The notes beneath the pieces are model-generated. The model searched no databases and had not been told where the DNA came from. It saw nothing but the letters and a program-made list of their open reading frames with translations. Shown here one piece after another: positions 52,610-59,174 of a DNA stretch of 64,000 nucleotides. How positions within the stretch are numbered: position 1 is the stretch's first letter; every line of letters starts with the position of its first letter. The position numbers and the translations under genes were made by a program. This DNA is from a virus (Duplodnaviria > Caudoviricetes), in the IMG/VR virus record IMGVR_UViG_3300023179_000070, positions 1-64,000 of that record; one strand, written 5' to 3'.

Positions 52610-53161
52610 CTATTTTTTAATTAAATTTATAAAATTAACCATTTGATCTTTTGTAAAATCATTTTTCATTACATTAATACAATAACATACAAATTCTACA
52701 TTTCCTTTTATATATCCTATATTCGGATCGATTCTATCTAGGCTTGCTTTTGTAGGAGTTTTTTTAATATCTTCATCGCCACTTGTTCTACTTAGTTCCA
52801 TTTGTATTTTTGTATATGGACAAATCCCATTTTGTTTATCCCAAATTTCTTTTAAATATTCTGTAGTTAAATCTGTTATGTATCCTTTTTGTTTACTTCG
52901 TGATCTAGCTTTATTTGCGTGATACTTAAATGGACTATATTGATCTAACCTATTAGCTTCGTGTCCTTTTAGTAAAGATATATTACCTTTATTTTTTTCT
53001 AGTTTACTTGGATTGTTTTTATAATCTGCTTTTCCAGAGCATTTTAAGCTACAATAAAATTTATTTTGACCAGCTTTTGCTTTTCTTTTATAATCGCTCT
53101 GTCTTATTTCGTGCTCTTTATTGCATTGAGCACAGATTATTTTTGTCTTTTTTATGTTCAT
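52610..53161 (-). CDS. HNH-like endonuclease with N-terminal zinc finger
   Basis: CAQC..FYCSLKC; CPYT..SLDRID...GY..GNV..C..N..K. Confidence 0.7.
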   Translation of the reverse strand: MNIKKTKIICAQCNKEHEIRQSDYKRKAKAGQNKFYCSLKCSGKADYKNNPSKLEKNKGNISLLKGHEANRLDQYSPFKYHANKARSRSKQKGYITDLTTEYLKEIWDKQNGICPYTKIQMELSRTSGDEDIKKTPTKASLDRIDPNIGYIKGNVEFVCYCINVMKNDFTKDQMVNFINLIKK

Positions 53162-53226: not shown

Positions 53227-53614
53227 TGGACCCGAGAGGAATTGAACCTCTGTCTTTTAAAAATCTAAATTAAAATACTACAAGTTTAGTTCTTTTTGTT
53301 TTTAGCTTTATATAGATAAAGAACAAACATACTTAGCGATTTTATTTTTAATACTTAATATTAATAGAATAAAAAAACTATTAATAATAAGACATCTAAT
53401 TCCGCAACTATCCAATAGATGTGTCAAGGTAGTCACGCTGTAGAACTTAGGCTACAGAAGCGGTCATCTCAACAAGAGGAACTCTTGCAGAGATATGACC
53501 TTTATATTTTGCTGTTTTGGCAGTTAATATAATTGAAACTTTTTAAGGAGTCCTCGATTCAACCTCCACTTGCATTTCAATTTATTTTCTTAAAATCGAA
53601 ACCAGTACGGGCCC
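53227..53614 (-). ncRNA. ssrA: tmRNA
   Basis: 5' GGGCCCGTACTGGTTTCGA; 3' GACAGAGGTTCAATTCCTCTCGGGTCCA; acceptor stem with G3-U pair; TAACT-GCC resume site; tag AKTAKYKGHISARVPLVEMTASVA* at 53521-53447. Confidence 0.92.
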
Positions 53615-53619
53615 AATGT

Positions 53620-53671
53620 TAAAGAACTAACTAATATTACACATTATAAAGCTTTTAATAATTTTTGACAA
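53620..53671 (-). promoter_or_regulatory. tandem tmRNA promoters plus boxA-like element
   Basis: TTGTCA-17-TATAAT directly followed by GTGTAAT-N7-AGTTCTTTAACA. Confidence 0.65.
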
Positions 53672-54632: not shown

Positions 54633-56123
54633 TTAGTCCTTTCCTTTATTTAAAAAGTTTTGTAATTTTCTATATTTTTTATTTTTTATTATAAGTTCTG
54701 GTATATTATTTTTAATAATTTGACGAATTTTATTTGAAATAGTATATCTTGCATTTTTTTTCGCTGCATCTAGTGATGCATTTATATTATTTCCATATCC
54801 TCTACCAATTGCGTTTATATTATAATTAATAATTTCTACATTAGTATTATTAACTTTTCCTTGTGAATTAAAAGAAGTTTCATCATAATTTAAAATTAAA
54901 TTCTCTCTAATATAATAATTTATTTTTTGATCTAAAGCATCATCTGTTCCAAATCCAGAGTATACAATATGAAATTGATTGTGTGTTCCAATTTTTTTAT
55001 TTAATTCTGTTGAAATTAATTCTATTGTAAAATTAGTGTAAGCTGGAATTATTCCATTCCAAGTGCCTGTATTAAATGTTTTATTTCCAGTATATAAACC
55101 TGTATAAAATTTATAAAATAAAGTATCTTTAATTGGTATATTTTGTGTTAAATGTTGATTTTTATCTAATGAAATAAAATTATATATTCCAGTTTTTGGA
55201 AAAATATCTCCACTATAATATTCGCTTCCTAAAGTTAATGCTGGAATTTTAATTCCTGATGAAATTTTTGTATTTATGGTAGTGGTCTTTTTATTAATTG
55301 TATTTATATTGTATACTAATGTATTTTGATATCCAGTATGAATTCCATGGGGAGAAATATAGCATATATTATATTTTTCTCCATTCCCAGTTGATATTAA
55401 AATTATTCCATTCAAATTTTTAGAATTAGTTTGATTTGTATCTAAATAATTATATATTGGCGCAATTTTTGTATCACAAATATATGCATTATATTGCCAA
55501 TTTTGTAAAGAACTTGGATAACTTAAATAAAAACCACTATAACTAGGATTTCCAGGAATTGCTCCAGAAGTATTGGATTTTGTCCATGCTCTATAAAATG
55601 TACTATTTGTAAAATCTAATCCTGTAAAAAATCCTGAAATTAAACTTGGATTATATTTTTGATTATATTCACCTGTTAGTATTTTTGAATTTGAAAAATC
55701 TTTTGTAAAAGTAGCTCTAATAAATGTTTCATTTTTATTTAAATTAGTTATTTTTGGTTTTGTTTTATAAAATTGTTGAAAATAATCATAATTATTTGAA
55801 TAAAAAATATATTCATCTGGAAAAAAATAAGATAATTGTCCAATTAATGGAATTTCTAATTTATAATTTGTATAATTTTTTTTAAATTCTATAGGTATAT
55901 GATAAGTTTGATAACTTTCTGAATTTTTTTTTGATTCAATTTTATTTTTTAAAATAAGTTCTAATTCTGGATTTTTTAAAGTACCTACATTAATTATATC
56001 TAATTTGACATTTTGTAAAGATTTATGTGTTATTTTTTCGTCATCAATAAATTGTGATTCAGAATTTACTTTAAAAGTACTCCCAAATCCTAATTTAATT
56101 AAATCTTGTTTTGAAATTGACAT
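54633..56123 (-). CDS. hypothetical protein, possibly virion-associated
   Basis: 496 aa, TG/SG-rich like the tail proteins; lies downstream of the group I ribozyme. Confidence 0.6.
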   Translation of the reverse strand: MSISKQDLIKLGFGSTFKVNSESQFIDDEKITHKSLQNVKLDIINVGTLKNPELELILKNKIESKKNSESYQTYHIPIEFKKNYTNYKLEIPLIGQLSYFFPDEYIFYSNNYDYFQQFYKTKPKITNLNKNETFIRATFTKDFSNSKILTGEYNQKYNPSLISGFFTGLDFTNSTFYRAWTKSNTSGAIPGNPSYSGFYLSYPSSLQNWQYNAYICDTKIAPIYNYLDTNQTNSKNLNGIILISTGNGEKYNICYISPHGIHTGYQNTLVYNINTINKKTTTINTKISSGIKIPALTLGSEYYSGDIFPKTGIYNFISLDKNQHLTQNIPIKDTLFYKFYTGLYTGNKTFNTGTWNGIIPAYTNFTIELISTELNKKIGTHNQFHIVYSGFGTDDALDQKINYYIRENLILNYDETSFNSQGKVNNTNVEIINYNINAIGRGYGNNINASLDAAKKNARYTISNKIRQIIKNNIPELIIKNKKYRKLQNFLNKGKD

Positions 56124-56195
56124 ACATTTATGTTTAACCTTAACCCACCCACTTCGCCCGTTTTAACTACTAGCTTTTCTGGGGCAGGTCTAAAT

Positions 56196-56425
56196 CATTT
56201 TGTTATCGTTAAATTGTTTATATTTAACATCTTTATATCACTATAAAGTTCAGACTATATCTTCTTACTTTCGTAAGTTTGGGCGCTCGTGGGCAATGTT
56301 ATTGTTGGAACTCAATCGCCTAGTCGTTACACCTTACAACCTATCTTTCCCAGTTGTCTTGGCTCGGTATAATCTATTTTAGATTTCCACCGAATTCACC
56401 CAAAATGGTCATTTATTTAATAAAG
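56196..56425 (-). ncRNA. ORF-less group I intron / ribozyme
   Basis: P GAATTCGGTGGAA, Q ATACCGAGCCAAG, R GTGTAACGACTA, S AAGATATAGTCT; P3 TTTGGGTG/CGCCCAAA; P5, P6, P7.1, P8 (CTTAC-GAAA-GTAAG), P9 and P9.1 hairpins; candidate terminal G at 56196. Confidence 0.85.
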
Positions 56426-56436
56426 AACTATTTTTT

Positions 56437-56463
56437 ATTACACTATTTTTTTATTTGTGTAAT
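56437..56463. promoter_or_regulatory. back-to-back GTGTAAT motif pair
   Basis: Minus 56437-56443 (ribozyme) and plus 56457-56463 (8 nt before ATG 56472). Confidence 0.65.
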
Positions 56464-56471
56464 ATAAATAT

Positions 56472-57050
56472 ATGCCTAATTTATTACCATATAGAGATTA
56501 CAATGAGCACGATGTAATTAATTTATATACTTGCGTGACAGTTGCAAATAAAGGTATATTAGTTAAACCAATAACTTCCCCAAAAGATGATAATGGGACA
56601 GATAACTCTAGCGCTGGTCCATTAAAACTAACTTCTGATGGAGTTGGTGAAAGATTTAAAAATACTATAAGTGATTTATTTGAAATTGTAGGAGAGGTTT
56701 CTCCAGTTGTCAATTATAATGACGTTCCAGGACCAATAGGTATTTTATTGTATGATGTTAGGGATTTAGATGAAAATGGTGAAAAATTAATATATAATCC
56801 ACGAAAAATGGCAGAAAAAAATATAGTTCTTCCAAAAGTTCAAGCGGCACCAATTTTAACTAAAGGAATTATTTTAATAAATGATATAGATACTTTGAGT
56901 AAAACTGGCGGTGGAGGATTACCTTCTATTGGTGCAGCTGCTTATGTTGGTGATGATGGTAGGATAGGAACTGATGGAATAATAGTATTAGGAAAATTTT
57001 TAAGTAAAATAGATCAAAATGGTTACTGTTTGGTTAAATTAAATATTTAA
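56472..57050 (+). CDS. putative capsid decoration/cement-like protein
   Basis: PIGILL, V..LTKG, G..AYVG..G..G..LGKFL pattern typical of head decoration proteins; late motif upstream. Confidence 0.4.
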   Translation: MPNLLPYRDYNEHDVINLYTCVTVANKGILVKPITSPKDDNGTDNSSAGPLKLTSDGVGERFKNTISDLFEIVGEVSPVVNYNDVPGPIGILLYDVRDLDENGEKLIYNPRKMAEKNIVLPKVQAAPILTKGIILINDIDTLSKTGGGGLPSIGAAAYVGDDGRIGTDGIIVLGKFLSKIDQNGYCLVKLNI

Positions 57051-57245
57051 TAAATTTTGACAATCTTTTTTATAAACAAAATTAAATTTAACTCTTGATC
57101 CATTTATATCAGAAATTAGCTGGGGTATTGCGATACATGGATATTGCTCTGGTTCATCATAAATATTCTCATTAGAAATATTATAATGCTTAACACATTT
57201 ATTTGCATAAGCTGACCATCTGGCTTTATTTTTTATAATTTCCAT
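57039..57245 (-). CDS. hypothetical protein (probable start 57245)
   Basis: TTGAAG-17-TATAAT-6-ATG. Confidence 0.6.
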   Translation of the reverse strand: MEIIKNKARWSAYANKCVKHYNISNENIYDEPEQYPCIAIPQLISDINGSRVKFNFVYKKDCQNLLNI

Positions 57246-57265
57246 TAATATATTATAAAAATAAT

Positions 57266-57294
57266 TTGACAAAACTTCAAACTTAATATATTAT
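57266..57294 (+). promoter_or_regulatory. sigma70-type promoter facing an ORF-free structured region
   Basis: TTGACA-17-TATTAT. Confidence 0.7.
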
Positions 57295-57300
57295 AAGTTT

Positions 57301-57625
57301 ACATAGTTCCCAATTAGAGCAGTTTGTTGATGTCAAATAATCAACTATCAATCCTTGAGATAGCAATGTCCTAAGGGCTGACAACTATTAAAACCTTCAT
57401 TTGTACATAATATGGCTAAAGAAGGAAATGTAGCTATAGGCATCGCAGAATGTAGTGATCGAAGCTACCTCTGATCCGTAAGTGCGATGGCCCATTCATC
57501 ACTGAGATCGTGGTGAAATTTGGAGTCAAAAGAAAAGTTGGATTGATAATACCCAACTTCAGATATTTAAAATCTGGAGGTAAAGCCCTTTTGGATATCA
57601 AAGAAAAGTTAAATAATTAGGATAT
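57301..57625 (+). ncRNA. unidentified structured ncRNA candidate
   Basis: No long ORF, raised GC, many helices including a GCAA-capped hairpin and two crossing pairings. Confidence 0.55.
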
Positions 57626-57629
57626 CGTA

Positions 57630-58145
57630 TTAAAACCAAACTTCATTATGTATTATTCTTAATATTTTAATCCAGTCTTTAAGATGTTCTGATATATGTA
57701 TTTTGTCTGAATTTTCAAATCCATTTTTTGCTATATTATAATATATATTTTCTGATGGATAAGCTCTTCTTGCTTTATGTAAGTTTTTATAAAAAAATCC
57801 TAAAAATACTAAAAGTGATTTAGCTGTATCTTCGTCATGTTTGAATTCTAGTATAGATTTTTTAAAAATAGGCTCTCCAATTAAATCATAGAATTTTAAA
57901 CCAACTGCTTCTGAGACATATTCTTTTTCTTCAAATGAATATTTTAAATCTTTACTATATTTTATAATAGTTATTTCTGCAAATACTGGAAAACTTATAT
58001 CAACAATCCCATCTATATCTTCTTCTGAAATTTTATTTAATATTTCTGGCAAACAATCTGGATCTTGGATTAGTAAAAATGCTTTTTCTGGAGATAAGTC
58101 CAATTTTTTAGCAAAGAAATCAATATCTCTTTCAGATACTATCAC
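57630..58145 (-). CDS. hypothetical protein
   Basis: 171 aa; GTG start 7 nt after ATGTAAT variant. Confidence 0.65.
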   Translation of the reverse strand: MIVSERDIDFFAKKLDLSPEKAFLLIQDPDCLPEILNKISEEDIDGIVDISFPVFAEITIIKYSKDLKYSFEEKEYVSEAVGLKFYDLIGEPIFKKSILEFKHDEDTAKSLLVFLGFFYKNLHKARRAYPSENIYYNIAKNGFENSDKIHISEHLKDWIKILRIIHNEVWF

Positions 58146-58152
58146 TAATATT

Positions 58153-58173
58153 ATTACATTTTAAAAGTGTAAT
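58153..58173. promoter_or_regulatory. back-to-back (A/G)TGTAAT motif pair
   Basis: Minus 58153-58159, plus 58167-58173. Confidence 0.55.
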
Positions 58174-58187
58174 TTAGATTAAATATT

Positions 58188-59174
58188 ATGTTTAAATATA
58201 TACTTGGATTATCAGCCTTCTTATTAGCTTCTTGCGCAGCATTCTTTTCAGTTAAAGGAATAGCTCTACTTTTTGCAGCTAGTTTTTGGAGCGTTGGAAT
58301 AATGGCTGGAAGTTTAGAAATAGCAAAATTAGTTAGCGCAAGTTATCTTTATAGATATTGGTCAGTAATACATGATTTACTTAAAAAATATATGCTATCT
58401 GCTACGATATTACTGATGTGCATAACAAGTCTTGGTATTTTTGGTTTTCTTTCTGATGCTTTTCAACGTAATTTTTCTCAATATTCTTTAAACTTAAATA
58501 AAATTCAAAGTTTAAAATCTCAACAAAATTTTTATATTTCTCAAATAGATTTCAATAAAAGCAAATTAAAAGATTTAATTGAATTACAAAAAACATATCA
58601 AACATCTCTAGATAATGCCGTTAAACAAGATGTGACTACAACTAAAACTACTGGCGGTGGATTTTTCAGTTCCGCTAAAACTGAAAAAGTAACAGATATT
58701 AAATTAGTAGAAAGTAAAAATAAAATAGTTGAAGGATCTCAAGTTAATATCAATAACTTATTTTCTCAAATATCTACAGTAACTTCTGATCTTCAAAATT
58801 TAGAAAAACAAAGTCTAGAAAATAGTCAAGAAATAATGAGACTAGAGAGTGATAATACAAAAGGCGAAATTGGTACATTTAAATTTGTAGCTGATGCATT
58901 TGGATTAAAAATAGAAACTGCAGTAAGAATATTTATTATATTAATTGTTATTGTTTTTGATCCATTAGCAGTATGTTTAGTTATAGCTTACAACTCAATT
59001 ATTAAAAAAGTAGAAAATCAAGAATTGCAAAAAACAGAACAAAAAATTAAAAATATTATAGATAAACCATTAGATACTTTTAAAGTATTTTATGAAAATC
59101 TACATAAAAATTTTAAACGTGGTACAAAAATGCAACATAATCCAGAATTAGCTGACCCAAATATCAAGCATTAA
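58188..59174 (+). CDS. membrane protein with long coiled coil
   Basis: Three N-terminal TM segments, coiled coil, C-terminal TM ending FDPLA. Confidence 0.7.
   Translation: MFKYILGLSAFLLASCAAFFSVKGIALLFAASFWSVGIMAGSLEIAKLVSASYLYRYWSVIHDLLKKYMLSATILLMCITSLGIFGFLSDAFQRNFSQYSLNLNKIQSLKSQQNFYISQIDFNKSKLKDLIELQKTYQTSLDNAVKQDVTTTKTTGGGFFSSAKTEKVTDIKLVESKNKIVEGSQVNINNLFSQISTVTSDLQNLEKQSLENSQEIMRLESDNTKGEIGTFKFVADAFGLKIETAVRIFIILIVIVFDPLAVCLVIAYNSIIKKVENQELQKTEQKIKNIIDKPLDTFKVFYENLHKNFKRGTKMQHNPELADPNIKH

Follow-up and report, generated by a model that had tools for sequence, protein, structure and literature searches.

The DNA analysed here, a stretch of 64,000 nucleotides that we call the window, is part of an 82,052-base record of a tailed-phage fragment, which is AT-rich (about 28% GC) and encodes a tape-measure protein, a tail fibre J-like protein, a DnaE-type polymerase and a tmRNA. 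In the divergent gap between a plus-strand ORF for a 192-aa protein (56472-57050) and a minus-strand ORF for a 496-aa protein (54633-56123) lies a group I ribozyme, and the elements of this locus, with the tmRNA gene of the same phage, are as follows.

56457..56463, plus strand: GTGTAAT of the divergent 192-aa gene, 8 nt ahead of its ATG at 56472
56437..56443, minus strand: GTGTAAT, a -10-like element recognised by its motif, putative promoter of the ribozyme
56421..56429, minus strand: AGTTCTTTA, conserved transcript start, with the start itself predicted near 56429 from spacing
56411..56415, minus strand: UAAAU, guide strand of P10, in register with AUUUA at 56195-56191 (5 pairs)
56406..56410, minus strand: GACCA, internal guide and 3' strand of P1 (covariation in 33 loci; MFE and centroid folds)
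56197..56404, minus strand: catalytic core P3-P9.1, including a P7.1/P7.2-like insert, J8/7 and P7 (Rfam, RNAalifold)
56196, minus strand: candidate terminal (omega) G, a conserved base and putative 3' splice site
56136..56195, minus strand: 60-nt spacer ("exon"), a rod hairpin by folding and a predicted circular product
56136..56140, minus strand: AGGUU, substrate strand of P1, with predicted cleavage between 56136 and 56135
54633..56123, minus strand: the 496-aa gene, whose start codon is 12 nt past the predicted cut
53227-53614, minus strand: tmRNA gene, with a GTGTAAT-N7-AGTTCTTTA start and the 14-nt leader AGUUCUUUAACAUU

The plus-strand GTGTAAT of the neighbouring gene confines the space upstream of the ribozyme to about 25 nt. 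The ribozyme matches the Rfam model RF00028 at 56231-56449 on the minus strand over the full length of the model (positions 1-253 of 253), with a score of 58.7 bits (E 3.9e-14) that is above the curated gathering score of 50 bits, and this is the single RF00028 match in the whole phage record. It is a full-length group I ribozyme that interrupts no gene. The minus strand has stops in each of its three frames within 56470-56436, and the N-terminus of the 496-aa protein (MSISK..L.KLG) is conserved and aligned from its first residue in a 14-sequence alignment; since this N-terminus is complete and no upstream frame is open, the ribozyme does not break a coding sequence. A split coding gene, for which there is additionally an in-frame stop at 56165-56163, was rejected on the same grounds. 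What defines a group I intron, namely the interruption of a gene and the joining of its exons into a linear RNA, is not found at the locus. The initial annotation, which had called a free-standing group I core here and proposed a search with group I models, is borne out by that search and by the genomic setting.

Ribozymes of this kind are easily overlooked. A search of the entire window against Rfam with default filters missed the ribozyme and reported the tmRNA alone, and an E-value search of six related loci (68 kb) reported no intron although the ribozyme sequence is present in them; when Rfam was run on seven loci, just the three GC-richer copies were reported. In this comparison, made on the whole window and on loci L002-L007, L043, L098, L120 and L210, AT-rich ribozymes of this type escape default or size-dependent Rfam filters except when the search is confined to a short region. 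Within 55800-56800, RF00028 was the one Rfam family that matched at E-values up to 10. Further along, 57266-57625 is an ORF-free stretch, and an E-value search of 57000-58300 against Rfam gave chance-level rows there (E of at least 1.6).

A search for related loci with the 496-aa protein as a single sequence found nothing; with its alignment, six viral loci carrying a homologue were found, and an exact 20-base core motif is present in five of them. The layout was read in four of these motif-bearing loci and follows an identical order, i.e. divergent gene start, promoter motif, AGTTCTT, ribozyme, a GC-richer stretch of 60-70 nt, and start codon, so that the adjacency of promoter and ribozyme that the initial annotation had proposed to look for in relatives is indeed conserved. 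We also looked for relatives with the intron inside an intact gene, as would befit a relic, and saw none among the relatives read. Pattern scans yielded 10 viral stretches, at least 119 metagenome stretches and at least 120 genome-contig stretches, and the J8/7-P7 motif occurs in 46 of the 118 unique viral and metagenome matches listed and in four of the 120 genome-contig matches listed, among them L210, in which the guide likewise comes first.

Compared with copies in which the downstream protein has 31-44% identity, the core of the window is 80-92% identical, and its spacer and leader are 23-39% identical to those of the same relatives. An RNAalifold consensus of 33 sequences contains 38 pairs in the P3-P9 helices, 20 of them with compensatory changes on both sides, and the letters of J8/7-P7 are invariant among the 33 family loci. 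Judged from these alignments, selection acts on the ribozyme as a folded RNA. One locus of the set, L134, is unusual in carrying an insert with TAGTTCTTTGACA inside the P5 loop of its ribozyme and in lacking the usual AGTTCTTT at its 5' end.

A group I ribozyme recognises its substrate through P1, in which an internal guide pairs with a substrate strand that places a U opposite a G. The initial annotation had correctly described the guide (UAAAU followed by GACCA) and its P10 partner AUUUA, and had observed that an ideal substrate would end in GGUU; such a substrate does exist, and what had been missed is that it lies downstream. The guide GACC (56410-56407) pairs with GGUU at 56139-56136, 60 nt past G56196, so that P1 in the window consists of four contiguous pairs, the last being the U.G; AAAC comes next, which is also the case in the relatives. 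When the 310-nt RNA of the window was folded with ViennaRNA, both the MFE and the centroid structure paired GACC with this GGUU. A second candidate site, GGGUU at 56146-56142, stands in a context less similar to that of the relatives. Because the ..GGUU substrate is downstream of the core, the layout is permuted (guide, core, terminal G, spacer, target), and its order of elements is that of a group I intron circularly permuted by opening the P1 loop.

The five bases ahead of P3 (GACCA in the window) vary between lineages, which allows the site to be followed from one lineage to another. We searched each locus for a downstream 5-mer ending in U opposite the guide G, with at least four contiguous pairs, followed by [A/U/G]A and near a long ORF. 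A G stands at the guide position in 38 of the 46 motif-bearing matches listed, and in 33 of these 38 loci a downstream site was found, 2-29 nt ahead of a start codon; the set of 33 is thus one in which every locus has a downstream match by selection. In all of them, again among the matches listed, the guide-first or STS-type order is found, as it is on one strand of the window. Seven combinations of guide and site occur among the matches listed: GACC with GGUU (4 loci), GAUC with GGUU (1 locus), GGCC with GGCU (14 loci), GGUC with GGCU (5 loci), GGUC with GACU (1 locus), GUCC with GGAU (7 loci) and GGGC with GCCU (1 locus). An eighth, GCCUU with AGGGU, was recognised by eye in L210. Across these combinations the second pair takes all four forms, A-U, G-C, U-A and C-G. 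The loci are related, and therefore these counts are not independent events, and the conservation of the U.G pair is partly by design since the search required the U. The search is also flexible, as guides taken from other classes match in 94 of 311 cases (30%), random guides in 17%, and shuffled upstream regions in 7.7%.

Not every copy with a G at the guide position leads into a gene in this manner. In L080 the site is present and is followed by a terminator-like hairpin, with the gene having its own promoter, and in L119 a C replaces the cleavage-site U, no gene follows, and there is a terminator-like hairpin with a fresh promoter (both read by eye). Processing of an mRNA is therefore not universal in the family, and these terminator-ended copies suggest that the RNA products themselves may matter. 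The other loci in which no site was found are L134, which is incomplete, and L015 and L057, which are GC-rich and offer a different context. In five loci (L002, L006, L016, L115 and L117) a ..UGGUU spanning the terminal G also pairs with the guide over 5 pairs, which may be a competing helix or chance.

As for the beginning of the transcript, the initial annotation had drawn attention to a GTGTAAT-N7 layout common to the ribozyme and the tmRNA gene, and the window has exactly two copies of GTGTAAT-N7-AGTTCTTTA, one at 56421-56443 and one ahead of the tmRNA at 53620-53642, both on the minus strand. The more relaxed GTGTAA[ACT] has 15 sites in the window, and 11 of the 15 are 7-68 nt ahead of an ATG, counting ORFs of at least 60 aa; four sites lie at 7-8 nt from the ATG, a leaderless-type layout. 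The full GTGTAAT precedes the ATG by 7-8 nt in four genes of the window (4818, 25230, 39598 and 56457 (+)), and their mRNAs would be leaderless, provided that GTGTAAT is a -10 element. From this 7-8 nt spacing we infer that the ribozyme RNA starts at the A of AGUUC, near 56429. A scan of 55900-56700 with a sigma-70 consensus gave 0 promoter-like and 0 terminator-like sites, and the putative promoter of the ribozyme is assigned from the GTGTAAT motif itself.

The tmRNA leader with the same start element is kept in all three relatives read (L002, L003 and L007). Immediately 5' of the tmRNA start element of the window there is a sigma-70-like TTGTCA-17-TATAAT, and a free-standing gene for an HNH / endonuclease VII-like protein (52610-53161, minus strand; PHROG 3322, E 7e-25) adjoins the tmRNA. 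In L045 and L130 the first 25 bases of the ribozyme (AGTTCTTTAACATT, the guide and the start of P3) match the tmRNA leader and 5' end of the window (53600-53628, with two single-base gaps, compared by eye). This resemblance suggests an exchange of promoter and leader between ribozyme and tmRNA genes.

Taken together, we consider it likely that the element is a natural group I ribozyme of permuted, "guide-first" order with which the transcript of the 496-aa gene begins, that its cut frees the mRNA, and that the spacer is then closed into a ring. Transcription would start about 7 nt past GTGTAAT, near 56429, and the core P3-P9.1 folds, as the model match and the covariation show. The spacer rod brings GGUU back to the guide GACC, so that P1 forms with the U.G at the cut, as covariation in the family and folding show. 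By the usual chemistry of group I ribozymes, a guanosine cofactor would attack after U56136 and cut between 56136 and 56135, and the mRNA would be freed with an added G and a 12-nt leader that has no Shine-Dalgarno sequence, like the leaderless-type genes of this phage. The 3' OH of U56136 would probably attack after G56196 in turn, and the products would be a 60-nt spacer ring and, at about 234 nt, the free ribozyme. The suggestion in the initial annotation that the ribozyme processes the 5' leader of the 496-aa gene is supported.

One may also consider a ribozyme that only cuts, in which guanosine attack frees the mRNA, the second step is unused and no ring is formed, and the terminal G serves hydrolysis at 56196, folding or something similar. 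In its favour, the in-register P10 numbers just 0-2 pairs in 20 of the 27 unique loci (5 in the window, 8 in L006), and the spacers are unrelated in sequence, which makes a sequence-specific function of a ring unlikely. Against it, the G that the initial annotation had taken as the candidate omega-G is conserved in all 33 loci, where it follows an AAC-containing tail (AACAAAAUG in the window, with small variations). The in-register P10, weak as it is, exceeds cross pairings between loci (mean 2.22 versus 1.47 in the 27 unique loci; permutation p 0.001). Spacer lengths vary little within lineages: the window has 60 nt and the other loci of the 496-aa family have 62-71 nt, and every listed marine locus has exactly 76 nt. 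In other lineages the spacer is 120-143 nt long. All of them are rod-like and leave the substrate tail free; that of the window has a folding energy of -16.3 kcal/mol, and its two ends are free tails. Moreover, a weak P10 is not disqualifying, since an engineered STS construct of the Tetrahymena ribozyme, which has the guide-first order, makes circles with P1 alone being sufficient (PMC10457212). We therefore regard the version without a ring as unlikely, and retain the guide-first ribozyme that both cuts and closes a ring as the preferred reading.

Two further observations concern the spacer. Translation of the ring by rolling circle was rejected as a trait of the family because most spacer lengths are not multiples of 3: the 60 nt of the window are, but among the 23 loci listed most lengths, such as 64, 71, 62, 65, 67 and 76 nt, are not, and of the three that are (66, 123 and 120 nt) only one has a stop-free frame. 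In the marine loci L032, L036, L053, L068, L070, L084 and L125, the first spacer bases, GGUCA, resemble the guide, and when marine spacers are folded in isolation GGUCA pairs with the substrate strand UGGCU, possibly as an alternative helix by which the site is hidden.

A more conventional explanation is an ordinary intron in the 5' untranslated region, in which a tiny upstream exon ending in AGUU would be joined to 56195. The AGUU is 16 nt ahead of the guide and the P10 geometry fits. However, as the initial annotation had already noted, this exon is tiny and mismatched: AGUU offers three contiguous pairs in the window and at most three in all 26 loci compared, and it does not follow the changes of the guide, so that in the GUCC class U.U mismatches result. 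In the upstream 45 nt as a whole, a match of at least four pairs was found in just 1 of the 33 loci. The A of AGUU is furthermore the predicted start of the transcript, and the marine lineage is without the AGUU element entirely. We consider such an intron very improbable. Still harder to credit is a trans-acting role, one of the two that the initial annotation had proposed, in which the released RNA would cleave or trans-splice host or phage RNAs ending in ..GGUU. Its guide is at the 5' end and would be free once the product is released, but guides differ before one and the same gene family (GACC, GAUC, GGUC, GGCC and GUCC), with a cis site matching each change, whereas a conserved target in trans, such as a shared host RNA, would keep the guide fixed; a role in trans is thus unsupported. 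Finally, that this is an inactive remnant left by an intron after the loss of its host gene, as might be thought of a ribozyme that interrupts nothing, is scarcely credible in view of the far higher identity of the core than of the flanking protein, the 20 compensatory pairs, and the presence of the same layout before at least three gene families without detectable similarity.

The guide-first layout heads at least the family of the 496-aa protein, that of a 928-aa protein and that of a 126-aa protein. The 496-aa protein has 60 homologues, and no match to it was found in Pfam or PHROG. Its predicted structure is beta-rich (pLDDT 79.5); Foldseek found no hit for this model at E <= 0.001 in either pdb or BFVD, and VIA-align gave a best Z of 6.0, with weak rows for a CUB-like beta-sandwich. 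The downstream genes of the 928-aa and 126-aa lineages had no family match, and profile comparison showed no similarity between them and the 496-aa family. Behind the 126-aa gene of the marine lineage come a tail-fibre-assembly-like gene and then an 831-aa tail fibre gene. The guide-first ribozyme may accordingly provide a short-leader 5' end for late, probably tail-related, genes.

In nature, group I ribozymes are familiar as introns, and the canonical relatives of this core by sequence are found in Clostridium, Staphylococcus and Vibrio phages and in tRNA-borne copies (L077, L039 and L235). The core is common to these canonical small phage and tRNA introns, which share P3-P4 GGGUGAAUUCGGUGG and J8/7-P7 AAGAUAUAGUC; in contrast to the phage element, the canonical copies reside within genes for a tape-measure protein, terminase or tRNA, and their P1 substrate strand is upstream. 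Lariat-capping ribozymes of the GIR1 type have a core derived from group I, with branching close to its 3' end, in a twin-ribozyme intron and before a homing endonuclease gene; at our locus there was no second ribozyme, no downstream endonuclease gene and no Rfam match of this kind, in a library that may lack GIR1. Another group I ribozyme outside the usual mould, the allosteric one of Clostridioides difficile, reportedly (Lee et al. 2010) has a c-di-GMP-II aptamer directly upstream; here, no other Rfam family matched in 55800-56800, and about 25 nt separate the element from the divergent gene.

Closer in architecture are the permuted intron-exon (PIE) constructs, reportedly described by Puttaraju and Been in 1992. 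Like PIE, the phage element is a circularly permuted group I intron that would back-splice an enclosed segment, but in PIE the break is in a peripheral loop and the intron halves flank the exon, whereas here the break is in the P1 loop, with the whole core upstream and the substrate strand alone downstream.

The nearest engineered parallel is the STS construct, in which guide and ribozyme come first, then an insert and then the target site in one RNA, and the chemistry predicted for the phage element is the same, with a cut after the target U and a joining to the base past the terminal G that yields a ring (PMC10457212). STS is man-made and of the Tetrahymena type, with nothing past the target (PMC10457212), whereas the phage element is natural, has a small-phage-intron-like core with a P7.1/P7.2-like insert, and its RNA runs into the released mRNA.

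Two natural systems are also comparable, both as given in PMC8637638. The coral mitochondrial group I intron ND5-717 is removed by back-splicing, and like it the phage element would be a natural group I precursor of permuted order; ND5-717, however, is a giant intron in a protein gene where back-splicing restores the order of the exons, whereas the phage element is in no gene, has its own putative promoter and is phage-borne. Bacterial circularly permuted group II introns share with it a natural, permuted layout outside genes and RNA rings (predicted in our case), but they belong to another ribozyme class with a branching chemistry and do not abut an ORF (PMC8637638), whereas the phage element ends 12 nt ahead of a start codon. 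In a 2023 survey, the natural circular permutations given are those of hammerhead, twister, 5S rRNA and group II only (PMC10085705). In the literature outside subscription journals we found no natural permuted group I ribozyme of a phage or bacterium; the guide-first or permuted group I layout appeared there in engineered constructs and in one coral mitochondrial intron only.

Whether the locus represents a widespread natural class in phages, i.e. guide-first group I ribozymes that are not introns, that start a transcript, free a near-leaderless mRNA with a newly added G, often of the tail-fibre type, and back-splice the spacer into a small ring, is a proposition that we hold to be evenly balanced. 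The case exposes a gap in annotation, in that long searches with default Rfam filters overlook such copies, and its compact AT-rich ribozymes could be tested as tools for circularisation. If the proposition is true, these phages would carry a natural counterpart of the engineered makers of circular RNA, and the layout used by RNA engineers would have arisen in nature as well. The 5' end of an mRNA would then be made by a ribozyme, which would be a new role for group I, namely defining where an mRNA begins, possibly with small RNA rings being made in infected cells.
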